Assembly (NCBI GenBank): GCA_036502405.1
Contig: DASXYP010000049.1
Span: 44,596-108,595, forward strand
Length of the DNA stretch: 64,000 nt
From: Acidimicrobiia bacterium
GTDB taxonomy: Bacteria > Actinomycetota > Acidimicrobiia > IMCC26256 > JAENVU01
Direction: 5' to 3'
In this document: piece by piece, positions 202 to 21,849 of the stretch
Layout of the letters: every line of letters starts with the position of its first letter
How positions within the stretch are numbered: the first letter of the stretch is position 1
Translations under genes and position numbers: made by a program
Notes under the pieces: generated by a model
Seen by the model: the letters and a program-made list of their open reading frames with translations, nothing else
Told to the model about the DNA's origin: nothing
Databases searched by the model: none

Positions 202-646
202 TTAGGGTCCGGGCTCCGCGCCGCTCGCTTGCTGATCGGGGGACGGCGGCACGGGGAACACAGCCTGCAACGCCGTGCCCACGCCCGCTCGGCTGTCGAC
301 GACCAACGTCCCTCCCATGGCTTCGACCCGATCCAGAAGCCCGATCAACCCGGACCCTCGAGTCGGGTCGGCGCCGCCCGTCCCGTCGTCTCGGATCTCG
401 AGCCGGAGAAGGCCGGTCACGCTCTTCGACGACGACGTGCACCTCCGACGCGCGCGTGTGCTTGACCACGTTCGTCAGCGCCTCCGAGACCACGTAGTAC
501 GCGGCGATCTCGATCGAATCGGGCAGGGTCCGATCGATGCGCACCTCCAGCTCGACGGGAACGGCCGCGCGACGGCGGAGGTTCCTGAGCGCCCCTGCTC
601 TGCCTGCTGACCTCCATGTGCCTACCGGCGCAACCCTCCGCGACCT
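202..646 (-). pseudogene. Remnant of a NarL/LuxR-class sensor histidine kinase (ATPase domain only), 5'-truncated and frameshifted
   Basis: The minus frame ending at 544 reads ...GALRNLRRRAAVPVELEVRIDRTLPDSIEIAAYYVVSEALTNVVKHTRASEVHVVVEER. The kinase then continues in a different frame (202..420: TGLLRLEIRDDGTGGADPTRGSGLIGLLDRVEAMGGTLVVDSRAGVGTALQAVFPV). The frame break is near 411-420. An in-frame stop at 647-649 and the lack of any H-box/dimerisation segment upstream indicate loss of the N-terminal half. Confidence 0.6.
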
Positions 647-696
647 TCACGCGAAACGCCCTTGCGGGCACTTGAAGGAGCATCGGGCCGGCGCAC

Positions 697-713
697 CTGA
701 AGGTGCGCTGAAC
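697..713 (+). promoter_or_regulatory. Phased direct repeat CTGAAG-N5-CTGAAC (11-bp spacing), candidate OmpR-family regulator site
   Basis: CTGAAG at 697-702 and CTGAAC at 708-713. The site is intergenic, upstream of the membrane protein gene (starts at 739/760/793). It belongs to the same pentamer family as the sites at 1572, 3864 and 6002. Confidence 0.4.
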
Positions 714-792
714 GGGTGCGCTTCACGAGCCCGGACGCGTGGGCTGTACTGCACCGACCATGGATTCGCATCGCAGCCGGCTCGGCCGGCGC

Positions 793-1575
793 ATGACCAC
801 GCGCGGGCGGCTGCGGGTCCCGGAGGTCGCCGCCTCGTTCTGGATCGTCAAGGGACTCTCGACCGCGATGGGTGAGTCGACGTCCGACTATCTGGTCCAT
901 CGCATCGACCCCGTTCCCGCCGTCCTGTTGGGCTTCGTCGGATTCGTGATCGCGCTCGCGTTGCAGCTCCGCATGAGGCGCTATCTCGCCACGACCTACT
1001 GGTTCGCCGTGGTCATGGTCGGCGTCTTCGGAACGATGTGTGCCGACGTGCTGCACGTGGGGTTCGGCATCCCCTATGCGGCGTCGACGACGCTGTGCGT
1101 GCTCGGCCTCGCGCTGGTGTTCGGATCGTGGCAGCGCACCGAAGGAACGCTCTCGATCCACAGCATCGACACCGAGCGCCGCGAGCTCTTCTACTGGGCC
1201 GCGGTCGTGCTCACGTTCGCGCTCGGGACCGGGCTCGGAGATCTCATGGCGGTGACGTTCAACCTCGGGTACTTCGCGTCGGCGGTGCTCTTTGCCGCGA
1301 TCCTGCTGGTGCCCGTGGTCGGGTACGCGCGGCTGCACTGGAACCCCGTCTTCTCGTTCTGGTTCGCGTACGTGCTCACCCGTCCCCTCGGCGCATCGAT
1401 CGCCGACTGGCTCGGCAAGCCGCAGGACGCCGGCGGCCTGGGCTGGGGATCGGGATGGGTGAGCCTCGGCCTGACCGCGCTGATCGTCGGAGCCGTCGCC
1501 TACCTCGCCGTGACCCGCTCGGATGTCCAGCGCACCGGCGGCGAACCCGCGCGGCGACCAGCGGCCGAGGCCTGA
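793..1575 (+). CDS. Integral membrane protein, COG4705-like (uncharacterised membrane-anchored protein family)
   Basis: ORF 739..1575 with multiple hydrophobic helices. The N-terminal 'VPEVAASFWIVKGLSTAMGESTSDYL' and later 'FWFAYVLTRPLGASIADWL' resemble the internally repeated COG4705 family (from memory). Start is ambiguous: GTG 739, ATG 760 or ATG 793. Confidence 0.8.
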   Translation: MTTRGRLRVPEVAASFWIVKGLSTAMGESTSDYLVHRIDPVPAVLLGFVGFVIALALQLRMRRYLATTYWFAVVMVGVFGTMCADVLHVGFGIPYAASTTLCVLGLALVFGSWQRTEGTLSIHSIDTERRELFYWAAVVLTFALGTGLGDLMAVTFNLGYFASAVLFAAILLVPVVGYARLHWNPVFSFWFAYVLTRPLGASIADWLGKPQDAGGLGWGSGWVSLGLTALIVGAVAYLAVTRSDVQRTGGEPARRPAAEA

Positions 1576-1588
1576 ACCGGGGCTGAAC
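1572..1588 (+). promoter_or_regulatory. Phased direct repeat CTGAACCGG x2 (11-bp spacing), candidate OmpR-family regulator site
   Basis: A perfect 9-nt repeat CTGAACCGG at 1572-1580 and 1583-1591. The site ends 42 nt before ATG 1633. A TAGCGT -10-like hexamer at 1620-1625 ends 7 nt before that ATG. Confidence 0.45.
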
Positions 1589-1632
1589 CGGCGCGCTGTC
1601 GGACGCGCCCGCGGCGCCGTAGCGTCACCGGC

Positions 1633-2829
1633 ATGCCATCAGGAGCGGGCTCCGCACCCGGGCTCGGGCGGGCAACGGGCTTGCTGGCGCTCGTCGTGGC
1701 GTTGGTCATCGCCGCCTGCGGTTGCTCGGCGACCGGAGGTGGACGCGCCGGCGCCGAGCGTCGCAAGCCGCCGTCGACTTCGTCGACCTCGACGACGACG
1801 ACCGCTCCGGTCGCGGATCCGAACCCGCTGACCGGCGCCGGCCCTGGTGTCGACGTCTACCAGCACACCCGAGCCGGGATGCTCAGCCCCGCGGTGCTCG
1901 GCGTGCCGGCGCGGGTCTACGTGCCGAACAGCCTCTCGAACACGGTCGACGTGATCGACCCGACGACGTTTCGAGTCGTGGAACACTTCGCGGTCGGCGC
2001 GAAGCCCCAGCACGTCGTGCCGTCGTACGATCTCTCGACGCTTTACGTGAACAACAACGCCGGGAACTCGCTCACACCGATCAACCCGCGGACGGCGGCG
2101 CCCGGTCCGCCGATCACGGTGCCGGACCCGTACAACCTGTATTACACACCGGACGGCAGCCGCGCGATCGTGATGGCGGAACGCAACGGTGAGATCGACG
2201 TGCGGGACCCGCACACGTGGGCGCTCGTCGAGGCGATCCGCGTCCCGCACGCCGGGGTCAACCACGCCGACTTCACGCCGAACGGTCGCGTCATGATCGT
2301 CAGCTGCGAGTTCTCCGGCTGGCTCGTGCGCATCGACCTGACGACGCTGACGATCACCGGCGAGCTCCACGTCGGTGGCGCCCCGATCGACGTGCGGTCC
2401 TCTCCGGACGGGAGCGTCATGTACGTTGCGAACCAGGAGCGCTCCGGCGTCTCGGTGATCGACCCGGCGACGATGCGCGAGCTGTCGTTCATCCCGACGG
2501 GGAGGGGAGCCCACGGTCTCTACCCGAGCCGCGACGGGACGAAGCTGTACGTGAGCAACCGGATGGCCGGCTCCGTCTCCGTGATCGACTTCGCCACCCA
2601 GGCGGTCGTGGCGACCTGGCCGATCGGCGGGACGCCCGACATGGGTGGCGTCTCGGCCGACGGCGGCCAGCTCTGGCTGACCGGTCGCTACAGCAACGCG
2701 GTCTACGTGATCGACACCGCGACCGGCCGGCTGCTCCACACCGTCCCGGTCGGTCTCGGCCCCCACGGGCTGTGCTTCTTCCCCCAGCCGGGCCGGTTCA
2801 GCCTCGGGCACACGGCCAACTACCGGTGA
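1633..2829 (+). CDS. Secreted lipoprotein with YVTN/YncE-type beta-propeller repeats
   Basis: 398 aa. Signal peptide plus lipobox (LVIAACGC), then a Ser/Thr/Pro linker. Repeated 'P.G....PDG..LYV.N..S..VSVID' units follow (e.g. SNTVDVIDPTT, GVSVIDPAT, GSVSVIDFAT, NAVYVIDTAT). Confidence 0.9.
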   Translation: MPSGAGSAPGLGRATGLLALVVALVIAACGCSATGGGRAGAERRKPPSTSSTSTTTTAPVADPNPLTGAGPGVDVYQHTRAGMLSPAVLGVPARVYVPNSLSNTVDVIDPTTFRVVEHFAVGAKPQHVVPSYDLSTLYVNNNAGNSLTPINPRTAAPGPPITVPDPYNLYYTPDGSRAIVMAERNGEIDVRDPHTWALVEAIRVPHAGVNHADFTPNGRVMIVSCEFSGWLVRIDLTTLTITGELHVGGAPIDVRSSPDGSVMYVANQERSGVSVIDPATMRELSFIPTGRGAHGLYPSRDGTKLYVSNRMAGSVSVIDFATQAVVATWPIGGTPDMGGVSADGGQLWLTGRYSNAVYVIDTATGRLLHTVPVGLGPHGLCFFPQPGRFSLGHTANYR

Positions 2830-3845
2830 GCGTCGACAACCGCGCGGCAATGGCGGCCCTCGGGCTGGCGCTGCTCGTGCTGTCGAGCGCCTGCGGAGGC
2901 GGAGGCGGAGGCCCGAGCAGGGCGCGCGGTCCGGCCTCGACCGCGACCAGGCCGGCTCCGCAACCCGTCGCACCCGTGACCACCACGCCACCCGCGACGG
3001 CGCCGACGCAGCGGATGGAGCCCGCGCTCCCGGCGGCGGTGCAGGAGTCGGGCGGCACGAGCGCCGACGGCCGGATGTACGTCGTCGGCGGCTACGACGC
3101 TTCCCGGTCGAGCACCGCGACGGTCTGGGTGTTCGACGGCCGCACGTGGCAGGCCGGGCCGGCGCTCCCGCTCCGGTTGAACCACCCTGGGGTCGCCGCA
3201 CTCGCGGGCGACGTCTACGTGGCCGGCGGGTTCACCCCGGACGGGCAGGCGTCGACCCGGGTGTTCGTGCTGCGGCGCGGCACGCTCCAATGGACGGAGC
3301 TGCCCGCGATGCACCGGCCGCGTGGTGCGCTCGCGCTCGTCGCCGTGTCCGGTGCGCTCCTGGCGATCGGCGGACGGGCCGGCACGCAGCAGATCGGCGT
3401 CGGAGAGCGCTTCGACCCGGCGACGCGCGTGTGGTCCGACCTCCCGGCAATGCCGAGCCCGCGCAACCACCTCGCGGGTTACGTCGAGGGTGGCCGGGCC
3501 TGCGTCGCGGGCGGCCGCACGCCGGCGACGACGGGTGGGGTGGACTGCTACGACCCCATCACCAACGGGTGGATCGCCGTGCCTCCGCTGGCGGTGCCGA
3601 CCTCCGGCGCGGGTGCGGCCGTGCTCCCCGACGAGCCGGTGGTCATGGGTGGCGAGACGGCAAACGAGACGTCGATCCTCGGGATCGTCCAGTGGCTCGC
3701 GGGTTCCGCGTGGAGCCAGACGCCGATGCTCGTCCCCCGCCACGGGGTGGCCGCCGCGGTCTTCGAGGGCCGGGTATGGGCGTGCGGAGGTGCGACGGCG
3801 CCCGGGTTCCACGCGGTCGCGGACTGCACCTCCCTCGGCCGCTGA
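2826..3845 (+). CDS. Kelch-repeat beta-propeller lipoprotein
   Basis: In-frame tail of ORF 2217..3845. The GTG at 2826 overlaps the upstream stop (GTGA); the alternative start is ATG 2850. Lipobox LVLSSACGG and a Pro/Thr linker are followed by repeated 'GG......W..LP.M...R' Kelch-like units (MYVVGGY, VYVAGGF, LLAIGGR, ACVAGGR, VVMGGE, VWACGG). Confidence 0.85.
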   Translation: MSVDNRAAMAALGLALLVLSSACGGGGGGPSRARGPASTATRPAPQPVAPVTTTPPATAPTQRMEPALPAAVQESGGTSADGRMYVVGGYDASRSSTATVWVFDGRTWQAGPALPLRLNHPGVAALAGDVYVAGGFTPDGQASTRVFVLRRGTLQWTELPAMHRPRGALALVAVSGALLAIGGRAGTQQIGVGERFDPATRVWSDLPAMPSPRNHLAGYVEGGRACVAGGRTPATTGGVDCYDPITNGWIAVPPLAVPTSGAGAAVLPDEPVVMGGETANETSILGIVQWLAGSAWSQTPMLVPRHGVAAAVFEGRVWACGGATAPGFHAVADCTSLGR

Positions 3846-3863
3846 AGAACCGGCGCCGGGCGT

Positions 3864-3890
3864 CTCAGCCGCGGTTCAGCCCACGTTCAG
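3864..3890 (+). promoter_or_regulatory. Three phased repeats CTCAG-N6-TTCAG-N6-TTCAG (11-bp spacing), candidate autoregulatory site
   Basis: Pentamers start at 3864, 3875 and 3886, in the 88-nt gap between the Kelch gene stop (3845) and the response regulator ATG (3934). The 21-mer at 3871-3891 matches the reverse complement of 1571-1591 at 18/21 positions. Confidence 0.45.
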
Positions 3891-3933
3891 GATGCGGCGC
3901 GACGATGGGAGCCCACCGCGAAGAGGACCCCGC

Positions 3934-4611
3934 ATGCGAGTGCTCATCGTCGAGGACGAGAAGAAGATCGCCGCGGCCCTGCGGCGTGGGCTCGAAGCCG
4001 AAGGATTCGCGGTCGACGTCGCGCTCGACGGCACCGACGGCCTGTGGATGGCAACCGAGCACGCGTACGACGTCATCGTGCTCGACATCATGTTGCCGGG
4101 CATGAACGGCTTCAAGGTGTGCGAGAGCCTCCGCGAAGCGCGGAACTGGACACCGATTCTGATGCTCACTGCGAAGGACGGCGAATACGACCAGGCCGAG
4201 GCGCTCGACACCGGGGCGGACGACTACCTCACGAAGCCGTTCTCCTTCGTCGTGCTGCTCGCCCGCATCCGCGCGCTGCTGCGGCGCAGCGGGCGGTCCG
4301 AGCCGGTCGTCTACAGGGCCGGCGACCTGACCGTCGACCCGGTCACGCACCACTGCAGGCGGGCAGACGTGTCGATCCCACTCACCGCACGCGAGTTCGC
4401 GGTCCTCGAGTTCCTCATGCGGCGAGCGGGCGAGGTCGTGTCGAAGTCCGAGATCCTCGACAACGTCTGGGACTTCGCGTTCGAGGGTGATCCGAACATC
4501 GTCGAGGTGTACGTGCGCCACCTGCGCCGCAAGCTGGACGAGCCGTTCGGCCGCCAGCTGATCGACACCATTCGCGGTGCGGGGTACCGGCTCAATCCGA
4601 CGGGCGGCTGA
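3934..4611 (+). CDS. OmpR/PhoB-family response regulator
   Basis: MRVLIVEDE...VIVLDIMLPGMNG...LMLTAKD (receiver domain) followed by a winged-helix C-terminus (LTAREFAVLEFLMRRAGEVVSKSEIL...VEVYVRHLRRKL...IRGAGYRL). Confidence 0.95.
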   Translation: MRVLIVEDEKKIAAALRRGLEAEGFAVDVALDGTDGLWMATEHAYDVIVLDIMLPGMNGFKVCESLREARNWTPILMLTAKDGEYDQAEALDTGADDYLTKPFSFVVLLARIRALLRRSGRSEPVVYRAGDLTVDPVTHHCRRADVSIPLTAREFAVLEFLMRRAGEVVSKSEILDNVWDFAFEGDPNIVEVYVRHLRRKLDEPFGRQLIDTIRGAGYRLNPTGG

Positions 4612-4617
4612 AGCCGC

Positions 4618-5970
4618 GTGCGGCACTTCGCGACCGTTCGGATCCGGGTCACCATCGCGTCGGTCATCGTCGTCGGCATCTCGCTGGCGCTCGGGAGCCT
4701 GTGGCTGTTGAACGCGCACCGGAGCGCGCTGACCCAGGGGATCGAGACGAACGCTCGCCTCCGATCGCGCGACATCGCCGCGACCGTGGCCGACGGGGCG
4801 TTCCCTGCGACGCTCGCGGTGCCACGGGGCGACGACAACCTGGTCCAGGTCGTCGACGCCGCCGGACACGTCGTCGCGTCGTCGGAGAACATCCGGAACG
4901 AGCAGCGGTTCAGCCGGCTGCAGCCGGATGACGACGGGTACGCGGCGCGCAGCGTGAGCGACCTGGACGGCGAAGGCCCGTTCCGCGTCGTCGCCCGGCG
5001 GGTCCGGACCAAGGCCGGGGTCCTCACCGTGTACGTGGCGGGCAGCCTGGCGCCCGTCGACTCGAGCGAGGACAGCCTCGAGCGGCTCCTCCTGCTCGGC
5101 TTGCCGATGCTGCTGCTGCTCGTCGGCGCCACCACCTGGGTCGTCACCGGTCGTGCGCTGCACCCAGTCGAGGACATCCGACGGGAGGTCGAGGCGATCG
5201 GCGGCGAGGATCTCCACCGCCGCGTCCCGGAGCCCGGGACTGCGGACGAGATCGGGCGTCTCGCGCGCACGATGAACGCGATGCTCGGGCGGCTCGAGCA
5301 CGCCACCGATCGCCAGCAGCGGTTCGTGGCGGACGCGAGCCACGAGCTGCGCAGCCCCCTCACGGGCATCCGGGCACAGCTCGAGGTCGACCTGGCCCAC
5401 CCCGAGCGCGCGGACTGGGAGAGCACCGAACGGGACGTGCTCGTGGACACGATCCGGTTGCAGCGGCTGGTCGAGGACCTCCTCGCGCTGGCCACCGCCG
5501 ACGCGAGGCCGAATGACGCCGCGCACCGGGAGACCGTCGACCTCGACGAGATCGTCCTCTCCGAGGCGCGGCGCCTGCGGAGCCGGAGCCCCCATGAGGT
5601 CGACAGCTCGGCGGTCTCGGGGGCGCAGCTGCTCGGCAACCCGGACCAGCTGACCCGGGCGGTCAGGAACCTCCTCGACAACGCGGACCGCCACGCCGGC
5701 ACGACGGTGACGGTCGCGCTGATCGAACACGACGACACGGTGCGGCTCACGGTCGTCGACGACGGGCCGGGCATCCCGGTGGAAGAGCAGTCGCGGATCT
5801 TCGAGCGGTTCACCCGGCTCGACGACGCGCGGGCCCGCGACAACGGTGGGAGCGGGCTCGGGCTCGCGATCACGCGGGAGGTCGTCACCGCACACGGTGG
5901 GACGATCGCGATCGACAACGCGCCGGGCGCCCGGTTCACGGTCGCGCTCCCCCGCCAGCCGGGGGCCTAG
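4618..5970 (+). CDS. Sensor histidine kinase (HAMP-HisKA-HATPase_c)
   Basis: 450 aa. Two TM segments flank a ~130-aa extracytoplasmic region. H-box FVADASHELRSPLTGI, N-box LLDNADRHA, G-boxes DDGPGIP and GGSGLGLAI. Starts 7 nt after the regulator stop. Confidence 0.95.
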   Translation: MRHFATVRIRVTIASVIVVGISLALGSLWLLNAHRSALTQGIETNARLRSRDIAATVADGAFPATLAVPRGDDNLVQVVDAAGHVVASSENIRNEQRFSRLQPDDDGYAARSVSDLDGEGPFRVVARRVRTKAGVLTVYVAGSLAPVDSSEDSLERLLLLGLPMLLLLVGATTWVVTGRALHPVEDIRREVEAIGGEDLHRRVPEPGTADEIGRLARTMNAMLGRLEHATDRQQRFVADASHELRSPLTGIRAQLEVDLAHPERADWESTERDVLVDTIRLQRLVEDLLALATADARPNDAAHRETVDLDEIVLSEARRLRSRSPHEVDSSAVSGAQLLGNPDQLTRAVRNLLDNADRHAGTTVTVALIEHDDTVRLTVVDDGPGIPVEEQSRIFERFTRLDDARARDNGGSGLGLAITREVVTAHGGTIAIDNAPGARFTVALPRQPGA

Positions 5971-6001
5971 GCGCGGAACGCGACCGCGCGCGGTCGTGGG
6001 C

Positions 6002-6017
6002 TTCAGCGGCTGTTCAG
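6002..6017 (+). promoter_or_regulatory. Phased direct repeat TTCAG-N6-TTCAG (11-bp spacing), candidate OmpR-family regulator site
   Basis: TTCAG at 6002-6006 and 6013-6017, in the 70-nt gap between the HK stop (5970) and the PAP2 ATG (6041). A degenerate third unit (CTGAG/CTCAG) lies at 6022-6031. Confidence 0.4.
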
Positions 6018-6040
6018 CCACCTGAGCTCAGAGTCGCACC

Positions 6041-6736
6041 ATGCACCGGGCCCAGGTCGTCCGCACCACCGTCGTGGCGCTGCTGCTCGGAGTCGCGTTC
6101 GTGGCCCTGGCCTCGTGGATCGCGGCCTCCAGCGCCCCGTCGGCGACCGACCGGACACTCGGACTTGCGTTGCTCGCGGCCCCGTCGACGTGGGGCTTCC
6201 GCGCCGCAACCGCAGTGAGCTTCCTCGGGTCGCCCGTGATCGTCACCGCGCTCAGCGTCCTCGCCGGACTGGTGTGCTGGCGGCGCGGCGGCGACGTCCG
6301 GCTCGCGGCGCTGTGCGTTGGAGCGCCCGCGGTCGCCGCCCTGGTCGAGGTCGTCACCAAACAGGTCGTGGCGCGGCCACGGCCGCCGACCCGCGTCCTC
6401 ACCGGTGCATCGGGATTCGGCTTCCCGTCCGGCCACACCACCGGCGCGGCCGCCTTGGCCGTCGTCGCCATGGTCGCCGCGCAGCTGCTGATCACGGACC
6501 GCCGGCTCCGGCGCCGGGTGTGCATGGTGGCCGTGACGTATGCGGTCACGGTGGGGATCAGCCGGGTCGTCGTCGGCGCCCACTACCCGTCCGACGTCGT
6601 CGGCGGTCTGCTCGTCGGAACGGCCGCCGCGCTCGGCTGCGCGCTGGTGCTGACCCGGCACCGGCGCGCGCCGCAGGCCGCGGCGCCTGCGCCGGACCCG
6701 CGTGCGCTCTCACGATCGTCCGGCCTCGCCGCGTGA
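6041..6736 (+). CDS. PAP2-family (type 2 phosphatidic acid / polyprenyl-diphosphate) phosphatase, membrane-bound
   Basis: 231 aa, multi-TM. The three PAP2 motifs are present: KQVVARPRP, PSGH and SRVVVGAHYPSD. Confidence 0.9.
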   Translation: MHRAQVVRTTVVALLLGVAFVALASWIAASSAPSATDRTLGLALLAAPSTWGFRAATAVSFLGSPVIVTALSVLAGLVCWRRGGDVRLAALCVGAPAVAALVEVVTKQVVARPRPPTRVLTGASGFGFPSGHTTGAAALAVVAMVAAQLLITDRRLRRRVCMVAVTYAVTVGISRVVVGAHYPSDVVGGLLVGTAAALGCALVLTRHRRAPQAAAPAPDPRALSRSSGLAA

Positions 6737-7995
6737 CCGCGTTGCGCACCGAACCCCCCGCCGTCGTTCCCGCGCGCTCGCCGATCATCCACGACCGCCG
6801 ACGGGCGTGGATGATCGCGGGCGCGACGGGTATCACCCTCGTCGCGGCGCTCCTGCTCCAGCTCGCGTTCGTCGGCCACCACGGCCACAACTCGCTGAGC
6901 GATCTGCCCCGCGTGTTCGCGCACCGCCGGGTCGGAACGGGTGGTTTGCCCTACGTCGACCGGATGATCGAATACCCGGTCGTCGCCGGCGAGCTGCTCT
7001 ACCTTGCGGCAACCGTCTGGCCGACGCCGACCGGCGTCCTCGTCGTCACCGCCGCGGCCGCGAGCGTCGTCGGCGTGATACTCGCGCTCGTCCTCGAACG
7101 CCGGGTCGGCGCACGGGCGTGGCGCTGGGCGGTCGGCACGCCACTGCTGCTGTACGCGTTCCAGAACTGGGACGTCTTCGCGATCGCGGCGCTCGTCGCC
7201 GGCCTCGTCGCGTTCGAACGCAAGCGCAACGGGTGGTCCGGCGTCGCCCTGGGCCTCGGCGCCGCGATCAAGCTGTTCCCGGCGGTCGCGGTGCCGCCGC
7301 TGGTCGCGATCCGGCTCGCCCGGGGGGACCGGCGCGGCGCCGTGCGGCTCGCGGGCGCGGCCATCGCCACCTTCGCCGCGCTCAACCTGCCGTTCGCGGT
7401 AGCGCGCCCGTCCGGATGGTGGTGGCCGTTCGCGTTCCAGGGGCGACGCAACGCAACCTGGGGAAGCGCCTGGTTCTACGCGCTCCGCCTCGTCGGCGCG
7501 CCCGTGCACGGCACGGCCGGCGCGCACCTGGCGAACGCCGTCTCGCTCGTCGCTCTCACCCTCGCGATCGCCGTCCTGGTGCTCGTGACCGTGAGGAACC
7601 GGCTGTCCGCATGGCCTGCAGTGGCCGCCGCGGTCGCCCTCTTCATCCTCGCGAACAAGGTCTACTCCCCCGCCTACGACCTCTGGCTCGTCGTGTTCTT
7701 CGTGATGCTGCCGGTGAGCCGCCGGCTCTGGCTCGGCTTCTGCGCGGTGGACCTGGCGATGTACCTCACGGTCTTCGGGCACTTCCACGGCTACGACTCG
7801 CCCTACCTCACCCACAACCTGCTGCCTGCGCTCGTCGTGATCCGCACCTGCCTGCTCGTGACGTTCGTGCTCGTCGCGGTTCGGCAACGCGTCACCGCCG
7901 ACCCCGTAGCCCGAGCCACGACCCCGGCCCCGACGAGCCGGCAGCAGCCCGCCGCGACCATGCCGGAGCTCGTCTCGTCCCGGGGACGCCGATGA
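6733..7995 (+). CDS. GT87/DUF2029-like polyprenyl-phosphate-sugar dependent glycosyltransferase (PimE-like membrane protein)
   Basis: In-frame tail of ORF 6115..7995. The GTG at 6733 overlaps the PAP2 stop (GTGA). About 10 TM helices. The first-loop motif 'LPYVDRMIEYPVVAG' resembles the GT87 catalytic Asp loop, and 'GAAIKLFPA' is typical of the family (from memory). Confidence 0.8.
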   Translation: MTALRTEPPAVVPARSPIIHDRRRAWMIAGATGITLVAALLLQLAFVGHHGHNSLSDLPRVFAHRRVGTGGLPYVDRMIEYPVVAGELLYLAATVWPTPTGVLVVTAAAASVVGVILALVLERRVGARAWRWAVGTPLLLYAFQNWDVFAIAALVAGLVAFERKRNGWSGVALGLGAAIKLFPAVAVPPLVAIRLARGDRRGAVRLAGAAIATFAALNLPFAVARPSGWWWPFAFQGRRNATWGSAWFYALRLVGAPVHGTAGAHLANAVSLVALTLAIAVLVLVTVRNRLSAWPAVAAAVALFILANKVYSPAYDLWLVVFFVMLPVSRRLWLGFCAVDLAMYLTVFGHFHGYDSPYLTHNLLPALVVIRTCLLVTFVLVAVRQRVTADPVARATTPAPTSRQQPAATMPELVSSRGRR

Positions 7996-9485
7996 CCACG
8001 TTGCTCGGAGGCTCGCGGCTGCGGTCGAGAGGCCCGGACCAGACCGCAGAGCCGCGTCCCCTCGCACCCCCTGAGCGACCGGTCGACGTCCGGCGCTCCG
8101 GGAGGGCCACGGCATGGTGTCTCGTCGCCCTCGTGGCCGCCGCGGCCGGGCTCCGCCTGTGGGGTCTCGGCGCGTCCCGCCTGAGCTACGACGAATCCTT
8201 CACCGCCATGGCGGGCCGGCTCCCGCTCGGCTCGCTCTTCGCGTATCTCACGCAGCACGACTCCCACCCACCGCTCGACTACCTCCTCCACCTACCGCTC
8301 GCCCGCGCGGGGGTGAGCGAGCTGTGGTTCCGCGTGCCGTCGGTGCTGTGCTCGGTCGCGGCAGTCGGTCTCTTCGCGTGGTGGCTCCGCGCCCGGGGAC
8401 GCCTCGCGGTCCTGGCGACCGCGCTGCTCGCGGTCAACACGTTCCAGGTCGTGCACGGTCGCCAGGCCCGCATGTACGCCGAGCTCGAGCTCCTCGGCGT
8501 GGGAATCGCGGTCTTGGCGAGTGCGTGGCTGGTGCGTCCGCGCCGCGTGCACGCGGTGCTGCTCGGTGTGCTCGTGTTCGCGGGCCTCATGACCCACACG
8601 TCCATGTTCCTGCTCGGCGCCGGTCTGCTCGTGCTCCCGGGCGTCCGGTCCGATCGCGCCGCGTGGCAGTGGCGCAGTGCGCTCCTTCTCGCGGTGGCGA
8701 GTTGGGCCGCGCTCTGGGGCGCCGCGTTCGTCACCCAGGCCGGCGGTGGGCACTCCGCGTGGATCCCGCGGACGACACCGGCGACCCTGGTGACCGCGCT
8801 CGGATCCCTCCTCGGCGCCCCGCCCGACTTCGCGATTCCGGCGCTCGTGCTGATGCTGCTCGGCGCGGTCGTGCTCCTCCGCCGCCGTGACGGACTGGGC
8901 CGGGTCTGGATCTGCTGTTTCGCCGTGCCCGTCGCCCTGGCCGCGGTCGCGGGCCTCTTCGCCCCGGTCGTGCTCGACCGCACCTTCACCCTGATGGCAT
9001 GGGCCCCCGTGCTCGCGGTCGCGTGCCTCCTCGATGCGCTGATCGCGCGCCGCGCGTGGCTCGGTGCACCCGCGGCCGCGCTGGTGCTGGTTTTCGCCCT
9101 CGCACCGACGATCGGCGCCCTCACGAGCGCGACCGGTCCGAACGCGCCGTTCCGCTACCTCGCGGCGCAGGTCCGACCCGGCGATGTCGTCGCGGTGCGT
9201 CCGGCGACCAAGGCACCCGAGCTCCAGTGGTCGTTGGGCGTGTCCACCGGCTCGTCGACCGGTCGCGTGCCGGTGCCGACGTTCTCGCCCAGCTTCGGCA
9301 TCCGGATCGGTCACGCGACACCCACCGGGCGCCTCTGGACGTTCGACTGGCACGCGCGCGGCACGAGCTCCTTCCCGGCGAGCAACGCGTGCCACCGACA
9401 CTGGACCTGGGGTCACGTCCAGATCCACTGTGTGGACATCGCAGCTTCGACGGTCTCGGCCTCGCCGGTCCGGACAGGCACGTGA
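7992..9485 (+). CDS. GT-C fold glycosyltransferase, GT39/ArnT (PMT_2)-like
   Basis: In-frame tail of ORF 6702..9485, with an ATGA overlap to the upstream stop. Polytopic N-terminal domain with 'RLWGLGASRLSYDESFTAMAG' (a DE motif in the first loop, as in PMT/ArnT enzymes) and a ~130-aa soluble C-terminus. There is a paralog at 20185..21723. Confidence 0.8.
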   Translation: MTTLLGGSRLRSRGPDQTAEPRPLAPPERPVDVRRSGRATAWCLVALVAAAAGLRLWGLGASRLSYDESFTAMAGRLPLGSLFAYLTQHDSHPPLDYLLHLPLARAGVSELWFRVPSVLCSVAAVGLFAWWLRARGRLAVLATALLAVNTFQVVHGRQARMYAELELLGVGIAVLASAWLVRPRRVHAVLLGVLVFAGLMTHTSMFLLGAGLLVLPGVRSDRAAWQWRSALLLAVASWAALWGAAFVTQAGGGHSAWIPRTTPATLVTALGSLLGAPPDFAIPALVLMLLGAVVLLRRRDGLGRVWICCFAVPVALAAVAGLFAPVVLDRTFTLMAWAPVLAVACLLDALIARRAWLGAPAAALVLVFALAPTIGALTSATGPNAPFRYLAAQVRPGDVVAVRPATKAPELQWSLGVSTGSSTGRVPVPTFSPSFGIRIGHATPTGRLWTFDWHARGTSSFPASNACHRHWTWGHVQIHCVDIAASTVSASPVRTGT

Positions 9486-9522
9486 GTCCGCGAGGCGCGC
9501 GAGCTGTGGTCCCCGCCGGGCC

Positions 9523-11091
9523 GTGAACCTCGCGCCCGCGCTGCGCCCGAGGTCACGCGTCGGAAGCTGGTACGCGGCGCCGGTGGTCGCAGTCATCGTC
9601 GCGGGCCTTGCGATGCAGCTCGGCTGGCACGGCGTCGACTGGCCGGCGCAGCTCTACCGGGTGCACCTGTTCCGAACGAACGGGTGGGTCGGGTACGACA
9701 CCGGCTGGTACGGCGGCAACGTCCCGCTCGCGTACAGCACCTTGTACCCGCCGCTCGCCGCGGCCCTCGGCGTGCAGCTCGTCGCGATCGGCAGCGTCGC
9801 GGTGTCGGCGTGGGCCTTCGACCGCCTCGTCCGCGCCGGGTTCGGCAGCGCGGCGCGGGTCGGCTCCGTGTGCTTCGCCGCGGGCCTGGTGGTGCAGGTC
9901 GTGATCGGACAGCTCTCGTTCCTGCTCGGGCTCGCCCTGGGGCTCACGGCGCTCCTCGCGCTGCGGAACCGGCGGACCCGGGTCGGCGCGGTCCTTGCGA
10001 TCGCGTGCTCGCTCGCCAGCTTCGTCGCCGGCCTCTTCCTGTTCCTCGGGACGGTCGCGGCGTGGTGCACCGCACGGCCGGAAGATCGGCGCACGGCGGC
10101 GATCCTCACCGCGGCCGCCGCGGCACCGATCCTCCTGATCGCCGTCGCCTACCACCAGGCCGGCCGCTTCCCGTTCCCCCTGAGCACCCTGGGCGCACTG
10201 CTCGTCGCGTGCGCCGGCCTGCTGGTCGCGCTCCCGGCCTCCCGGCGGACCCTTCGCCTCGCGGTGTGGCTGTACGCAGCGAGCGCGGTCGCGCTCTTCA
10301 TCGTCCCGACTCCGGTCGGAGCGAACGTCGCGCGCGCCGCGACGGTGGCTGCGGCCCCACTGCTGCTCTGCGTCGCTCGGCGGCGCGCCGTCGTCGCGGT
10401 GTTCGTGACGTTTCTCGTCGTCTGGCAGCTCGCGCCGGCACTCAGGACGGTCACGGCCGACCCGGCCGCGTCGACCACGCGTGCGTTCTACGTCCCGCTG
10501 CTCGCCGAGCTCGCGCGCGTCGCTCCGGCGCCGTCCCGGCTCGAGATCCCGTTGACCCTCGAGCACTGGGAGGCAGCCTGGGTCGCACCCACGATCCCGC
10601 TCGCTCGCGGATGGGAACGCCAGCTCGACATCGTCGACAACCCGCTCTTCTACCGCGACGGTCCCCTGACACCGTCGGCCTACCGCGCCTGGCTCGCGAA
10701 GAACGGCATCGGATGGGTCGCGCTGCCCCGAGCGCCGCTCGACTACTCCGCCCGGGCGGAAGCCCACCTGCTCCGCGCGGGCCCGTCGTACCTGCAACCG
10801 ACGTGGAGCGATCGCGACTGGACGTTGTGGCGCGTCGTCGGGACGCACGGGATGGTCACCGGACCCGCCCGGCTCACCGCCCTCGACGCCGCGAGCTTCA
10901 CCGTCGTCGCCCGTCGGGCCGGCGCGGCGGTCGTGCGGATCCGGTACTCCCCCACCTGGTCGATCGTCGACGCCGACGGCGCGAGCTGCCTCGGCAGCAC
11001 GTCCGACTCGTGGACGCGGCTCCGGTTCCGGCACGCCGGACCGATTCGTGTGGAGGCCCAGCTCCTCCCGCGCGCGGCCAGCGCATGTTGA
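9523..11091 (+). CDS. Large polytopic membrane protein with C-terminal extracytoplasmic domain (possible third GT-C-type enzyme)
   Basis: Tail of ORF 9064..11091. About 10 hydrophobic helices are followed by a ~200-aa soluble domain (PLARGWERQLDIVDNPLFY...WLAKNGIGWVALPRAPLD). An N-terminal loop reads 'GYDTGWYGGNVPLAYSTLYPPLAAALG'. The family was not recognised with certainty. Start is uncertain (GTG 9523 chosen; ATG 9614 possible). Confidence 0.7.
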   Translation: MNLAPALRPRSRVGSWYAAPVVAVIVAGLAMQLGWHGVDWPAQLYRVHLFRTNGWVGYDTGWYGGNVPLAYSTLYPPLAAALGVQLVAIGSVAVSAWAFDRLVRAGFGSAARVGSVCFAAGLVVQVVIGQLSFLLGLALGLTALLALRNRRTRVGAVLAIACSLASFVAGLFLFLGTVAAWCTARPEDRRTAAILTAAAAAPILLIAVAYHQAGRFPFPLSTLGALLVACAGLLVALPASRRTLRLAVWLYAASAVALFIVPTPVGANVARAATVAAAPLLLCVARRRAVVAVFVTFLVVWQLAPALRTVTADPAASTTRAFYVPLLAELARVAPAPSRLEIPLTLEHWEAAWVAPTIPLARGWERQLDIVDNPLFYRDGPLTPSAYRAWLAKNGIGWVALPRAPLDYSARAEAHLLRAGPSYLQPTWSDRDWTLWRVVGTHGMVTGPARLTALDAASFTVVARRAGAAVVRIRYSPTWSIVDADGASCLGSTSDSWTRLRFRHAGPIRVEAQLLPRAASAC

Positions 11092-11125
11092 GTCACCGCG
11101 GCCCCGACCCGGGCGGCGGCGAGCG

Positions 11126-11269
11126 GTGAGCGAGATCGAGGCGCGCATCGCCGAGATGTGGCGGTCCGGGCGGCTGCTCCCCCGCATCCTGCTCGTGCTG
11201 CTCGCCTTCGCGGCGATCGTCGTCACCGGGACCGTGATCTACTCGTTCCTGCTCCCCGTGACGGGGTAG
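11126..11269 (+). CDS. Small single-TM protein (hypothetical)
   Basis: Tail of ORF 11048..11269: VSEIEARIAEMWRSGRLLPRILLVLLAFAAIVVTGTVIYSFLLPVTG. One clear TM helix, positioned last in the + strand gene string. Start is uncertain (GTG 11126 or ATG 11156). Confidence 0.35.
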   Translation: MSEIEARIAEMWRSGRLLPRILLVLLAFAAIVVTGTVIYSFLLPVTG

Positions 11270-11293
11270 TCCGCCAACCTGCGGCGTGCGCAG

Positions 11294-17651: not shown

Positions 17652-20293
17652 CCTGGCTGCGGGCGCTCGTCACGCGCCAGGGCGCCCGGGTGGTCGCGAC
17701 TGCGGCGGGCGTTGCCGTGGCGGTCGCGCTCTTCGCATCGATCGGAGCGTTCCTCGCCGCCTCGAAGGCCACCATGACCCGTCGGGCCGTGCAGAGCGTG
17801 ACCGTCGACTGGCAGGTCGAGGTGCAACCGAACGCGAGCACCCCGGCGATCCTGCGGGCGGTCCGCTCTCGTGCCACCGCCACCGCCACCGTCGGCGTCG
17901 CGTCCACGACCGGCCTCCAGGCCCGGACGGGCGGTTCGACGCAGGCCACGGGACCAGGGGTCGTGCTCGGCCTCCCGTCGCGCTACCCCGCGACGTTCCC
18001 GGGGGTGATCCGCCGGCTCGCGGGCACCCCGAGCGGCGTGCTCGTGACCCAGCAGACCGCAGCGAACCTGCACGTGACCCCGGGTGACCCGATCACCATC
18101 GGGCGTGACGGCCTCCCCGTGGCCACCGTTCGCGTGCAGGGCGTCGTCGACCTCCCGCAGGCCGACTCGCTCTTCCAGCGCGTGGGCGCGCCGCCGGGCA
18201 GCCAGCCGCAGGCTCCCCCCGACAACGTCGTCCTGCTCCCCGCTCCCGCCTGGCACACGGTGTTCGACCCGCTCGCGGCGCGCCGCCCGGACCTCGTCCA
18301 CACACAGATCCACGCCCGGCTCCCCCGCGACCTCCCGGCCGACCCGGCCGCCGCGTTCACCCGCGTGGACGGGGCGGCCCACAACCTCGAGGCGTCGGTG
18401 TCCGGCGGGGCACTGGTCGGCGACAACCTCGGCGCGACGCTCAGCGCGGCTCGGGACGACGCGCTCTATGCACAGGTGCTGTTCCTGTTCCTCGGCGTCC
18501 CCGGGATCGCGCTCGCCGCGCTGTTGACCGCGGCAGTCGCGCGCTCGGGGGCGCAGCGGCGGCGGCGCGAGCAGGCCCTGGTGCGGACCCGTGGCGCCAC
18601 GCCGGCCCTCATCGTCCGCTTCGCGCTCGCCGAGGCGCTCGTCGTCGGCGGGCTCGGCGCAGTGCTCGGCATCGGTGCCGCGCTCGCAGTCGGGGCGACG
18701 AGCTTCGGCGACGCCGGGTTCGGCGCCACGGGGCATGCGGCCGCGGTCTGGTTCGCGGCGGCCGCCGCGGTCGGGCTCGGGATCGCGGTTGCGGTCATCG
18801 TCGTGCCGACCTGGCTGGACTCGCGCCGACTGACGGTCGCGCGGGCGCGGCTGACGTTCGGGGCAGAGCGCGCGCCACGGTGGCTCCGCGGCGGACTCGA
18901 CCTGCTGCTGCTCGCCGCCGCGTACATCGTGTTCTGGCTCACCAGCCGCAACGGATACCAGCTGGTCCTGGCCCCCGAAGGGACGCCCGCGATCTCGGTC
19001 AGCTACTGGGCGCTCGCGGGGCCGGCCCTCCTCTGGCTGGGCGCCGGCCTGCTCGCGTGGCGGCTCGCGTACTGGGGCCTCGCGGCCGGGCGGGCCGTGG
19101 TCACGCGCGTCATCCGTCCTGTCGCCGGCGGCCTGTCCGGGACCGTGGCCGCCACCATGGCGCGGCAGCGCCGCCTGTTGGCCGGCGCCCTGGCGCTCGT
19201 GGCGCTCAGCGTGGCGTTCGCAGGTTCGACCGCCGGGTTCAACCGCACCTACCGGACCCAGGCCGAGGTCGACGCTCAGCTGACGAACGGCGGCGACGTC
19301 ACCGTGAGCGAGGCCCCCGGCTCCACCTCTGGTCCGAGCGTCGCCCGCCTGGCAGCCATCCACGGTGTGCGTCGCGTCGAGCCGCTCGTGCACCGCTACG
19401 CGTATGTCGGTGCGGACCTGCAGGACCTCTACGGTGTCCGGACGAGCACCATCGTCGACGCCACGCACCTGCAGGACGCGTACTTCCAGGGGGGCAGTGC
19501 CCGCTCGCTGATCACGCGCCTCGGCCGCCAACCCGACGGGGTGCTCGTGAGCGCAGAGACGGTCAAGGACTTCCAGCTCCGGCCGGGCGACCCGCTACAC
19601 CTGCGTCTCCCGGGCCACGGCCGCGGGTCACTGGTGCAGGTCCCGTTCCACTACGTCGGCATCGCGAAGGAGTTCCCCACGGCTCCCCGCGACAGCTTTC
19701 TCGTCGCGAACGCGAGCTACGTGGCGGCCAGGACCGGCAACCCTGCCATCGGGGCGTATCTCATCGACACCGGCGGGCGCTCGACCGCGACCGTCGCACA
19801 TGCGGTCCGCCGGTACGTGGGACCGACGGCGACCGTGACCGACCTCGCCACGACCCGAAAGGTCGTCGGCTCGTCGCTGACCGCGGTGGACCTCTCGGGA
19901 CTGACGAAGGTCGAGCTCGGCTTCGCAATCGTGCTCGCCGTGGCCGCGGCGGGGCTCGTGCTCGGACTCGGGCTTGCCGAGCGCCGCCGAACCTTCGCGA
20001 TCGCGGCCGCGCTCGGCGCGCGGCCCGCGCAGCTCGGTGGGTTCGTCTGGAGCGAGGCCGGCTTCGTGCTTCTGGGCGGCGTCGCCGCCGGCGGCTGCAT
20101 CGGGTGGGCCCTGGCCGCGATGTTGGTCAAAGTCCTGACGGGAGTCTTCGACCCGCCGCCCGACCACCTGTCGGTCCCATGGGGCTACCTGGCCACCGTC
20201 GCCGCGGCCGTCACCGCCGCCGTAGCGGTCGCAGCGGCCATCACCGTCCGCCGCGCCGCGAGCGCTCCCCTCACCGAGCTGCGCGACCTCTGA
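17639..20293 (+). CDS. Large FtsX-family ABC permease with two FtsX modules and large extracytoplasmic domains
   Basis: Tail of ORF 16967..20293, with a GTG at 17639 overlapping the ATPase 3' end. About 884 aa. There are two blocks of 4-TM FtsX-like helices (e.g. LFLFLGVPGIALAALLTAAV...RTRGATPALIVRF and FAIVLAVAAAGLVLGLGLAERRRTFAIAAALGARPAQL), each preceded by a large soluble loop. Confidence 0.9.
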   Translation: MPSLTWLRALVTRQGARVVATAAGVAVAVALFASIGAFLAASKATMTRRAVQSVTVDWQVEVQPNASTPAILRAVRSRATATATVGVASTTGLQARTGGSTQATGPGVVLGLPSRYPATFPGVIRRLAGTPSGVLVTQQTAANLHVTPGDPITIGRDGLPVATVRVQGVVDLPQADSLFQRVGAPPGSQPQAPPDNVVLLPAPAWHTVFDPLAARRPDLVHTQIHARLPRDLPADPAAAFTRVDGAAHNLEASVSGGALVGDNLGATLSAARDDALYAQVLFLFLGVPGIALAALLTAAVARSGAQRRRREQALVRTRGATPALIVRFALAEALVVGGLGAVLGIGAALAVGATSFGDAGFGATGHAAAVWFAAAAAVGLGIAVAVIVVPTWLDSRRLTVARARLTFGAERAPRWLRGGLDLLLLAAAYIVFWLTSRNGYQLVLAPEGTPAISVSYWALAGPALLWLGAGLLAWRLAYWGLAAGRAVVTRVIRPVAGGLSGTVAATMARQRRLLAGALALVALSVAFAGSTAGFNRTYRTQAEVDAQLTNGGDVTVSEAPGSTSGPSVARLAAIHGVRRVEPLVHRYAYVGADLQDLYGVRTSTIVDATHLQDAYFQGGSARSLITRLGRQPDGVLVSAETVKDFQLRPGDPLHLRLPGHGRGSLVQVPFHYVGIAKEFPTAPRDSFLVANASYVAARTGNPAIGAYLIDTGGRSTATVAHAVRRYVGPTATVTDLATTRKVVGSSLTAVDLSGLTKVELGFAIVLAVAAAGLVLGLGLAERRRTFAIAAALGARPAQLGGFVWSEAGFVLLGGVAAGGCIGWALAAMLVKVLTGVFDPPPDHLSVPWGYLATVAAAVTAAVAVAAAITVRRAASAPLTELRDL

Positions 20294-21723
20294 TCGACGG
20301 CGTCGCGCCAGCACACGACGTGCAGCGCGCCGAACGTCCGGTCCCGCGCGCAACGGGGCTTCCCCGTTTCGTGAATCGGGCCGTTGGACTCGAGCAGCCA
20401 CGTCCGTCCGGTCAAGGGTCCGTCGCCCACGGCTACGCCCAGGGAATTGCCGAGCCCCGCGAGGCGAACGCCCCGCGCCGGCTCGTGCCGACGAACGCTG
20501 ACGGACCAGAGGAGGAGATGGAGCCGGTTGCCGGGCCGGCTCGCGATGACGTCCCCGGGACGAGCGACGGCCTCGATCCGTCGGACGGCGAGGTCGACGT
20601 TCGATGACGCGGTGACGGTGTCGACCGCGGACGGGAGAAGGAGCACCGCAGCAGTCATGAGCGCGACGACGCCGAGCACCCGCGACCGGTGCAGGAGGTG
20701 CGCGACGAGGAAGCCGAACGCCATGCACGGACCCCACGACCACAAGGTCATCGTGCGATCCAGGAGGACCGGCGCGACGAGCCCCGCGAGCGACGCGAGC
20801 ACGGCAGGTGCGAGTGCACAACAGACGAAGACCCGGCTCAGTCGCGTCCGAGACTGCCAGACCAGCACGCTTCCGGCCACCACGGCCGCGAACGCTGCGA
20901 GCTGCAAGCTCGCGCTTGGTGTGACCAACGCGCCGAACGTCCGGATGAGGCCGTCCACCGTCGTGCGCGGGATCCAGCTCGAGTGACCACCTCGAGACTG
21001 GACGAGGAAGGTCGGGCCCCAGAGGACCGCCCAACCGACGAGCGCGGCGAGGAGCGCAGCTCGCCAGCGCCACGCGTCACGGTCCCGGCGCAGCCCGGCC
21101 AGCAGCGCGAGCCCGGCGACGAGTAGGAACATCGAGACGTGCGTCATCAGTCCGACGAAGCTCAACGCGCCGATCGCGGGTGCGTGCCATGACCTCGGCT
21201 CGTGCAACCAGGCCTCCGCCATGACCGCGACAACGACACCGATGAGCTCGAGCTCCGCGTACATGCGCGCCTCGCGGCCGAACGTGATCTGGAAGGCGCT
21301 GGCCGCCAGGAGCGCCGTGGCGACGACGCCGGCGACGCCGCGCCTGCGCATCCACCAGGCGAACACCGCGAGGGCCGCGACCGAGCAGATCACGGACGGC
21401 AGCCGGAAGACCAGCTCGCTGGCGCCGGCTCGGGCCAGGGGCGCGCGCAGGAGGTAGTCCAGAGGTGGGTGGGAGTCCCGCACGCGCAGGTACGCGAACA
21501 GGCTTCCGAGCGGCTTTCGCCCGGCCATCGCGGTGAAGGCCTCGTCGAAGCCCAGCCGCGGCGCGCCCAGCCCCCAGACCCGCACGAGCCCGCCGAGCGC
21601 GACGATCACCACGAGGGCGATGGACGACGGTCGTCTGCGGGACCGAGGCGCCGCACTGACAGCTCCGATCGGCACGCCGAACGTCGCCTTCTTCTCGGGC
21701 AGGATCGTGGGCGGCGATCGCAT
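20185..21723 (-). CDS. GT-C fold glycosyltransferase, GT39/ArnT-like (paralog of 7992..9485)
   Basis: Part of ORF 20185..22146. The start is ATG 21723, with GAAGGGG 6 nt upstream. 'RVWGLGAPRLGFDEAFTAMAGRKPLGSLFAYLRVRDSHPPLDYLLRAPLARAGASELVFRLPSVICSVAA' is near-collinear with the 7992 gene product. The 3' end overlaps the convergent permease gene by 109 nt. Confidence 0.8.
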   Translation of the reverse strand: MRSPPTILPEKKATFGVPIGAVSAAPRSRRRPSSIALVVIVALGGLVRVWGLGAPRLGFDEAFTAMAGRKPLGSLFAYLRVRDSHPPLDYLLRAPLARAGASELVFRLPSVICSVAALAVFAWWMRRRGVAGVVATALLAASAFQITFGREARMYAELELIGVVVAVMAEAWLHEPRSWHAPAIGALSFVGLMTHVSMFLLVAGLALLAGLRRDRDAWRWRAALLAALVGWAVLWGPTFLVQSRGGHSSWIPRTTVDGLIRTFGALVTPSASLQLAAFAAVVAGSVLVWQSRTRLSRVFVCCALAPAVLASLAGLVAPVLLDRTMTLWSWGPCMAFGFLVAHLLHRSRVLGVVALMTAAVLLLPSAVDTVTASSNVDLAVRRIEAVARPGDVIASRPGNRLHLLLWSVSVRRHEPARGVRLAGLGNSLGVAVGDGPLTGRTWLLESNGPIHETGKPRCARDRTFGALHVVCWRDAVDQRSRSSVRGALAARRTVMAAATATAAVTAAATVAR

Positions 21724-21849
21724 TTCGCGCCCCTTCAGGCCGCGGTTCGATGCGGCGAGCTGAAGCGAGGCCCTCGCCCGTGAACCAGGGTCATCCCACC
21801 GTTGTACCCACCCCGACCTGAAGACGTGCTGAAGCACTCCCGGCTCCTC

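Follow-up and report, generated by a model that had tools for sequence, protein, structure and literature searches.

In the 64-kb stretch of DNA analyzed here (hereafter the window; Acidimicrobiia bacterium, contig DASXYP010000049.1, about 70% G+C), the pentamer TTCAG occurs in helically phased direct repeats, TTCAG-N6-TTCAG, which are real and far beyond chance. These pairs very probably serve as the operators of an OmpR/PhoB-family response regulator whose gene lies at 3934-4611 and which is a homolog of Microbacterium UipR, as predicted from their sequence, their placement relative to promoters and their conservation beside related regulator genes throughout Actinomycetota.

Phased TTCAG repeats and their conservation

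Exact TTCAG-N6-TTCAG pairs were searched on both strands of the window, and the expectation was derived from 100 dinucleotide shuffles. Five pairs were observed compared with 0.02 expected, and all five are intergenic; the entire window has just 52 TTCAG pentamers. When pair spacings of 0 to 15 were examined, spacing 6 was populated by the five pairs and the other spacings by a single pair, at spacing 10. With one mismatch allowed, the sole addition was a third unit, CTCAG, at 3864, and pairs with two mismatches were found at chance level (22 found, about 17 expected). The spacer sequences of the box copies differ from each other, and Rfam and repeat scans detected no Rfam family and no longer tandem or dispersed repeat at the boxes. 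A sequence-only reading of this stretch had previously reported four repeat sites with an exact 11-bp period, at 697-713, 1572-1588, 3864-3890, and 6002-6017. All four were found there with that period, and the match of 18/21 positions that it gave between the reverse complement of 1571-1591 and 3871-3891 was correct; the pair was also less frequent in shuffled sequence, a comparison which that reading had itself named. Its list was incomplete in that the fifth exact pair (21818-21833) was missed and a weaker, 12-bp-spaced neighbor in the same spacer was given instead, and what it described as weaker relatives elsewhere in the window is at chance level, as are the two-mismatch versions.

Conservation was examined in 80 loci encoding homologs of the regulator (63-87% identity, 1.14 Mb), which were taken from metagenome-assembled genomes (MAGs) and isolates, with sources including Microbacterium, Curtobacterium, Agromyces, Nocardioides, Nonomuraea, Planomonospora, Micromonospora, and Ilumatobacteraceae. 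In all, 117 exact pairs were counted in this set, compared with 0.5 expected. An exact and correctly oriented pair was detected at most 160 nucleotides (nt) upstream of the regulator gene in 48 of the 80 loci, and most of the remaining loci have variants with one or two mismatches (CTCAG, GTCAG, TTTAG) in which the spacing to the −10 hexamer is unchanged; the presence of the pair upstream of orthologs, which the sequence-only reading had proposed as a check, was therefore found before the regulator gene in most of the loci. The second recurrent position is shortly downstream of the kinase gene, where exact and oriented pairs were found at 41 sites from 40 of the 80 loci and also in locus L087. 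Where a gene is divergent from the regulator gene, two boxes stand back to back, one per promoter. In L087, whose regulator is 92% identical to that of the window, sites 3 and 4 (Table 1) are both kept, and the three-unit site has the same GACGATGGG −10. The recognition helix of the regulator, GDPNIVEVY, is nearly invariant across the loci and in this respect matches the invariant half-site. The conservation in the 80 loci strongly supports the earlier proposal that the repeats are the operator of the adjacent OmpR/PhoB-type regulator and mark a small local regulon.

Promoter layout and candidate target genes

The position of the box relative to the promoter was determined with a set of 122 exact pairs and with an alignment of 115 unique sites. 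An nAnnnT −10 hexamer was found 10-12 nt after the box in 112 of the 122 pairs; a gap of 11 nt was seen in 93 of the pairs from the loci and one of 10 nt in 14, with other offsets at background (1-4 each). In the alignment the hexamer starts 11 nt after the proximal TTCAG, with an A at +28 and a T at +32 (81% each), and third units, where present, are spaced by 10-11 bp. The canonical box spans about −39 to −24, which is the −35 position, and a consensus scan of 500-6200 identified no sigma-70-type −35/−10 promoter, as expected for activator-dependent promoters. In 22 of the 48 regulator genes the start codon follows the box at a distance of 22-24 nt, which places it 6-7 nt after the −10; leaderless mRNAs are therefore implied, and the pattern indicates that transcripts are leaderless at many of the predicted targets.

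Three of the five sites in the window can be related to this layout. Site 4 is fully canonical and is the predicted leaderless promoter of the PAP2 operon; its start codon follows the box after 23 nt, the geometry seen most often in the family. Site 3 is likewise canonical and a candidate autoregulatory box, identical in design to that of L087, with a predicted leader after GACGAT of about 21-27 nt that includes an GAAGAGGA Shine-Dalgarno sequence. Site 5 is nearly canonical, being followed after 11 nt by TACAAC, in which the gap is right and the final T is missing. The spacer between site 5 and ATG 21723 also has isolated half-sites at 21733-21765 (TTCAG ... TCGAA ... CTGAAG) and a small palindrome, CGAGGGCCTCG; these half-sites are individually at chance level.

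We propose that the kinase (4618-5970) phosphorylates the regulator, which would then bind as a head-to-tail dimer with one winged-helix domain per TTCAG, so that both domains would contact the same face of the helix at a distance of 11 bp. The box stands 10-11 bp upstream of nAnnnT at sites 3 and 4 and probably at site 5, in the place of a −35 element. Because the box replaces the −35 without a −35 consensus, the bound dimer is predicted to recruit RNA polymerase as PhoB and BqsR do, and hence to activate rather than repress transcription from the presumed start sites. The outcome would be (i) positive autoregulation of the regulator-kinase operon at the three-unit site 3; (ii) induction of the leaderless PAP2/GT87/GT39-like/membrane-protein operon at site 4; and (iii) induction of the GT39-like paralog at site 5. 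Such a mechanism, an OmpR/PhoB-type class II activator box, is textbook, and the element is of an ordinary kind.

Table 1. Boxes, −10-like hexamers and genes of the window (positions are those of the window)
Feature	Position	Strand	Remarks
Site 1	697..712 (697-713 = CTGAAGgtgcgCTGAAC)	−	Exact pair; minus-strand reading TTCAGCGCACCTTCAG
Site 2	1572..1587 (1572-1588 = CTGAACcggggCTGAAC)	−	Exact pair; minus-strand reading TTCAGCCCCGGTTCAG
Site 3	3864..3890	+	Three phased units, CTCAG-N6-TTCAG-N6-TTCAG, upstream of regulator gene
Site 4	6002..6017 (TTCAGcggctgTTCAG)	+	Exact pair TTCAGCGGCTGTTCAG, immediately 3′ of kinase gene
Site 5	21818..21833	−	Exact pair TTCAGCACGTCTTCAG, direct orientation, 94 nt before ATG 21723
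−10-like hexamer TAGCGT	1620..1625	+	Ends 7 nt before ATG 1633; candidate leaderless promoter of YncE-like/Kelch pair
−10-like hexamer GACGAT	3901..3906	+	10 nt after site 3
−10 hexamer CAGAGT	6029..6034	+	11 nt after site 4, 6 nt before ATG 6041
Response regulator, OmpR/PhoB family (UipR-like)	3934..4611	+	Pfam Response_reg and Trans_reg_C; proposed binder
Sensor histidine kinase, cognate	4618..5970	+	HAMP-HisKA-HATPase_c
DUF347 (COG4705-type) membrane protein	739..1575	+	Candidate target; PF03988, four repeats, E=1.9e-45
YncE-like (YVTN) seven-bladed beta-propeller lipoprotein	1633..2829	+	PF21783, E=5e-35; TIGR02276 repeats
Kelch-repeat lipoprotein	2826..3845	+	Kelch_1, E=4.9e-33
Target operon behind site 4	6041..11091	+	Four genes
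PAP2 phosphatase	6041-6736	+	Pfam PAP2
GT87-like protein	6733-7995	+	GT87, weak Pfam match, E=3e-7
GT39-like GT-C membrane protein	7992-9485	+	Homologs named 'glycosyltransferase family 39' or 'mannosyltransferase' in sources
Polytopic membrane protein of no assigned family	9523-11091	+	Last gene of PAP2 operon
GT39-like paralog	20185..21723	−	47-48% identical to 7992-9485 protein

The gene limits in Table 1 were set by hand from Pfam matches and overlapping start and stop codons; for the DUF347 gene, ATG 760 was taken as the start and GTG 739 as the limit of the open reading frame. The translation of the YncE-like gene shows a lipobox, IAAC, and its stop codon is overlapped by the start of the Kelch gene. 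Each of the two GT39-like paralogs of the window stands behind a box. Set beside a three-component envelope glycosylation system, in which genes for a polyprenyl-phosphate GT2, a GtrA-type flippase, and a GT-C transferase stand together, the PAP2 operon has PAP2, GT87 (weak match), and GT39-like (source names) genes, and GT2 and GtrA are absent; the GT-C assignment is thus a putative one, based on source names plus the weak Pfam match. An Acidimicrobiia MAG has an annotated protein that is 100% identical to a gene product of the window. The sole Rfam match in the window is a selenocysteine tRNA at 34910-35000 (+) (RF01852, 75.6 bits).

The target classes named by the sequence-only reading were found again behind boxes in other loci, namely DUF347 (L028, L030), Kelch/YncE (L091, L098), and the GT87/GT39-like glycosyltransferases (L001, L002, L087, L088, L098). 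The boxed genes are GT87 and then GT39-like in L087 and a GT87/GT2 fusion in L002, and in L088 boxes precede the regulator, GT87, GT2-GtrA, and GT39-like genes. Homologs of the PAP2 operon lie behind boxes in L002, L087, L088, and L098, and a GT2 gene, with or without GtrA, is found beside homologous genes in L088 and L090. The Kelch/YncE pair recurs beside this two-component system in L087, L088, and L098; in the last of these, back-to-back boxes are located between a GT87/MptA_B-family gene and the Kelch-YncE operon, whose box is canonical and direct. The DUF347 homologs in L028 and L030 similarly follow canonical box pairs. The most common arrangement in the family is different, with a PepSY gene as the boxed gene after the kinase in 33 loci. 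For the lineage of the window, by comparison, the boxed genes point to regulated envelope glycosylation rather than to a PepSY partner, as judged from their predicted families.

The 16.7-kb Ilumatobacteraceae locus L030 has seven exact pairs within 6.4 kb (5103-11445). The boxed genes there encode a metallophosphoesterase, a VTT/DedA-domain protein, a small TrbL-like membrane protein, DUF347, and the regulator, and with seven pairs before these genes the local regulon is therefore larger. L095 and L096, from two other Acidimicrobiia genomes, have the Kelch-YncE operon and a GT87 gene on either side of another OmpR-type two-component system, the regulator of which is 39% identical to that of the window. 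No TTCAG pairs were found around that system; both spacers have a TTTGCC-N4/5-GTTGACCCG repeat (L095 2755-2945 and 670-800, L096 2750-2940). These loci were rejected as syntenic relatives on account of the other regulator and the other repeat; in them, the same set of genes seems to have been connected to a regulator of a second type.

Inverted sites and alternative explanations

Sites 1 and 2 are inverted relative to the neighboring plus-strand genes, and on their own strand neither has a −10 at 10-11 nt. In architecture these two therefore differ from sites 3 and 4, as they are inverted and placed about two helical turns further upstream. Site 2 and the DUF347 stop codon overlap, and the site is inverted with respect to the YncE-like gene, with a layout of box, 32 nt, TAGCGT, 7 nt, and ATG 1633 that centers the box near −53. 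TAGCGT had been correctly placed 7 nt before ATG 1633; the repeat had been placed over the −35 region and is instead 32 nt upstream of the hexamer, at roughly −61 to −46. Similarly, of the distances of 42 and 43 nt given from sites 2 and 3 to their ATGs, the second was reproduced (counted from 3890), and the first was found to be 44 nt (counted from 1588). At site 1, the plus strand has 32 nt to TGTACT (745-750) or 34 nt to TACTGC, followed after 9 (or 7) nt by ATG 760.

A layout similar to that of site 2 was identified in L091, where an exact inverted pair, overlapping the stop codon on its upstream side, stands before a YncE ortholog (78% identity). After the pair come 33 nt, TACGGT, 7 nt, and then a GTG in frame, with which a plausible signal peptide opens. 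This ortholog lies in an unrelated neighborhood, after aspS and with no two-component system within 10 kb. When all sequence gathered was searched with the composite inverted pattern, just site 2 and L091 were found. Thus the target gene families are conserved, whereas the architecture seen at sites 1 and 2 has one replicate. We propose that these sites are true boxes in a second layout, inverted and near −53, ahead of the DUF347 and YncE-like/Kelch genes, where the regulator would probably act from an upstream position.

Several other assignments for these two sites were considered and rejected: (i) site 2 as a minus-strand promoter, as its own strand is without a −10; (ii) site 1 as a canonical minus-strand promoter (GATGCT, 12 nt), as a 12-nt gap is at background in the family and only a decayed kinase fragment is downstream; and (iii) the metagenome YncE homologs L081-L086 as a measure of the conservation of site 2, as neither boxes nor the two-component system were found there. 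The fragment in question (202-600, −), left of site 1, is the C-terminal HATPase part of a NarL-type histidine kinase with an internal frameshift and a missing N-terminal half, and represents either a decayed gene or an assembly error. A perfect palindrome at 691-708, GCGCACCTGAAGGTGCGC (7-bp stem, 4-nt center), includes the left half-site of site 1. The 16-mer of site 1, TTCAGCGCACCTTCAG, recurs identically in L056 at 7897 (−), where it is a canonical box.

A number of observations weigh against the interpretation of the pairs as operators of the adjacent regulator or against parts of it. At the level of the individual sites, sites 1 and 2 depart from the canonical layout, the hexamer assumed as the −10 of site 1 (TGTACT or TACTGC) is weak, the −10 of site 5 (TACAAC) is imperfect, and the inverted layout is repeated in one other locus only (L091). 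Most of the YncE orthologs sampled (L081-L086, L092-L094, L097) are without a box; these are mostly behind a Kelch gene in an operon or on short contigs. At the level of the system, the assignment of box to regulator rests on co-occurrence in more than 80 loci, and specificity was judged on 64 kb of genome. Moreover, the genes next to the two-component system of the window do not include the PepSY partner that is usual in the family, and an insensitive search, tblastn with the target-neighbor proteins of the loci (33 of them PepSY), detected no PepSY homolog in the window.

The short pentamers and the spacers, which are as GC-rich as the rest of the genome, might suggest that the repeats stem from base composition or chance, or that they are copies of a small dispersed element without a regulatory role. 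Chance and composition were ruled out by the shuffles and the conservation, given the excess of pairs in both the window and the 80 loci; the copies also have different spacers, they keep a constant position with respect to −10 and start codons from genus to genus, and no Rfam family or longer repeat was found, leaving this explanation with a practically negligible probability. More substantial is the suggestion that the boxes are real operators that are bound by another regulator, such as a transcription factor encoded elsewhere, since several OmpR-family regulators have similar half-sites, including TTAAG (BqsR), TKTTAAGAAM (Corynebacterium glutamicum MprA), and TGAAGATTT (CopR). We consider it very unlikely, however, as the box is found before the regulator's own gene and right after the kinase gene across dozens of genera while the flanking genes vary. 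In addition, when the same target genes are beside a different regulator (39% identity), the box is absent and another repeat is present, and the window has no other response regulator detectable by tblastn, in agreement with the earlier statement that 3934-4611 encodes its sole OmpR-type regulator. A second histidine kinase is encoded at 14195-15493 (−), 29% identical to the 4618-5970 kinase over 283 residues, and tblastn found no partner response regulator for it within the window.

Sites 1 and 2 might also be bound and yet not activate the plus-strand genes, being promoter relics, repressing or roadblock sites, or antisense starts into DUF347. Consistent with this, both sites are inverted with no −10 at 10-11 nt, site 1 borders the decayed and frameshifted kinase fragment, which suggests rearrangement, and elsewhere the DUF347 genes (L028, L030) and the Kelch-YncE operon (L098) carry canonical direct boxes instead. 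However, two exact pairs, where 0.02 is expected per window, are unlikely to be neutral relics, and site 2 and L091 share orientation, a gap of 32-33 nt, TAnnnT, and 7 nt to the start codon even though their flanking genes are unrelated. Site 1, moreover, likewise stands 32 nt from a hexamer that ends in T, and its flank is similar (CTGAAC-sGG-nGCGC). Non-activating sites are thus a doubtful explanation, although one to be taken seriously, and activation from the inverted position is the interpretation that we tentatively prefer for sites 1 and 2.

Relationship to known two-component systems

The family is UipRS, a name we apply because the PepSY neighbor in the Microbacterium oleivorans locus L079 matches UipA (PDB 7ATH, E=1.9e-26), and by sequence the system of the window is homologous to Microbacterium UipRS. 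Its regulator is 64-67% and its kinase 40-43% identical to those of the Microbacterium loci (65% for the L079 regulator), and these loci carry TTCAG-N6-TTCAG before the regulator gene and before the uipA-like gene. The window differs in that the kinase gene is followed by the PAP2/glycosyltransferase operon and that the upstream flank is Kelch, not PepSY. According to a 2022 review, a role of UipRS in uranium sensing was not demonstrated (PMC8963506). Modules of PepSY proteins and two-component systems are widespread, e.g., DbfQRS and BqsPQRS (PMC12714742). If UipA, BqsS, and CopS are taken as a guide, the system described here may respond to a metal cation or to stress on the envelope.

The Escherichia coli pho box consists of two direct repeats 11 bp apart, located about 10 bp upstream of the −10 and replacing the −35. 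The gap of 10-11 nt measured here is of the same class II layout; the half-site, signal, and regulon differ from those of PhoB, many targets here are predicted to be leaderless, and a second, inverted layout is found (sites 1, 2, and L091). Similar in box design is BqsR/CarR of Pseudomonas aeruginosa, an OmpR-family regulator with a pentamer direct repeat at N6 spacing whose half-site is one base off (TTAAG compared with TTCAG). BqsR was found experimentally to bind TTAAG(N)6TTAAG overlapping the −35 (PMC4358008); like the system proposed here, it controls its own expression, and its module includes the PepSY genes bqsP/Q (PMC4358008, PMC12714742). It belongs to another phylum, is distant in sequence (CarR DNA-binding domain match E=7e-15), and has other regulon content; its kinase BqsS is characterized by Fe(II) sensing through an RExxE motif.

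The domains of the window regulator are full length (PF00072, E=3e-30; PF00486, E=2e-26), and its nearest NCBIfam is cztR_silR_copR (TIGR01387), at 255.8 bits with a cut-off of 279.2. The solved structures nearest to its DNA-binding domain are those of PcoR (the closest), Mycobacterium tuberculosis PhoP, and CarR. Membership in the copper/silver (heavy-metal) subfamily TIGR01387 was considered and rejected, as this best-scoring family is under its cut-off and no metal-handling target genes were found. The likeness to CopRS of C. glutamicum and to the CusR/PcoR subfamily thus lies in the nearest curated family and the nearest solved DNA-binding domain. The CopR box is a direct repeat with an 11-bp period, TGAAGATTTnnTGAAGATTT, the complement of which contains CTTCA (PMC3140484), so TTCA at 11-bp phasing is common to the box described here and to the complement of the CopR box; the CopR half-site is longer and unlike TTCAG, and the window has no copper-handling target gene. 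MprA was also considered as the closest relative on the basis of a CTCAG-type box, which was not confirmed, the C. glutamicum MprA motif given in the literature being TKTTAAGAAM. An exact-phrase search, with incomplete coverage of the literature, found no paper with TTCAG-N6-TTCAG, and in the same incomplete coverage no paper giving a DNA box for UipRS was found; box sequence and regulon are probably undescribed.

PmrA/BasR is an OmpR-family regulator with a TTAA-type direct repeat that drives a polyprenyl-phosphate GT2, a small flippase, and a GT-C transferase (ArnC-ArnE/F-ArnT). The boxes in Acidimicrobiia precede GT2-GtrA, GT87, and GT39-like genes, and the likeness to lipid A modification would be one of function only, meant as an analogy and not as a claim of membership. 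More tentatively, we suggest, as possible rather than probable, that the boxes delineate an undescribed UipRS-type regulon across Actinomycetota that was rewired in Acidimicrobiia from PepSY to inducible envelope glycosylation and Kelch/YncE lipoproteins, a Gram-positive counterpart of PmrA/Arn with two promoter layouts (direct at −35 and inverted near −53).

With these pairs, a concrete operator sequence and promoter design that can be put to the test are available for a two-component system found widely in Actinomycetota. UipRS, the member from Microbacterium, adjoins the uranium/iron-binding UipA, and the link between UipRS and uipA is now directly testable. Furthermore, the box permits the regulon to be predicted genome by genome, with PepSY proteins as the candidate targets in Actinomycetes and envelope glycosyltransferases and lipoproteins in Acidimicrobiia.

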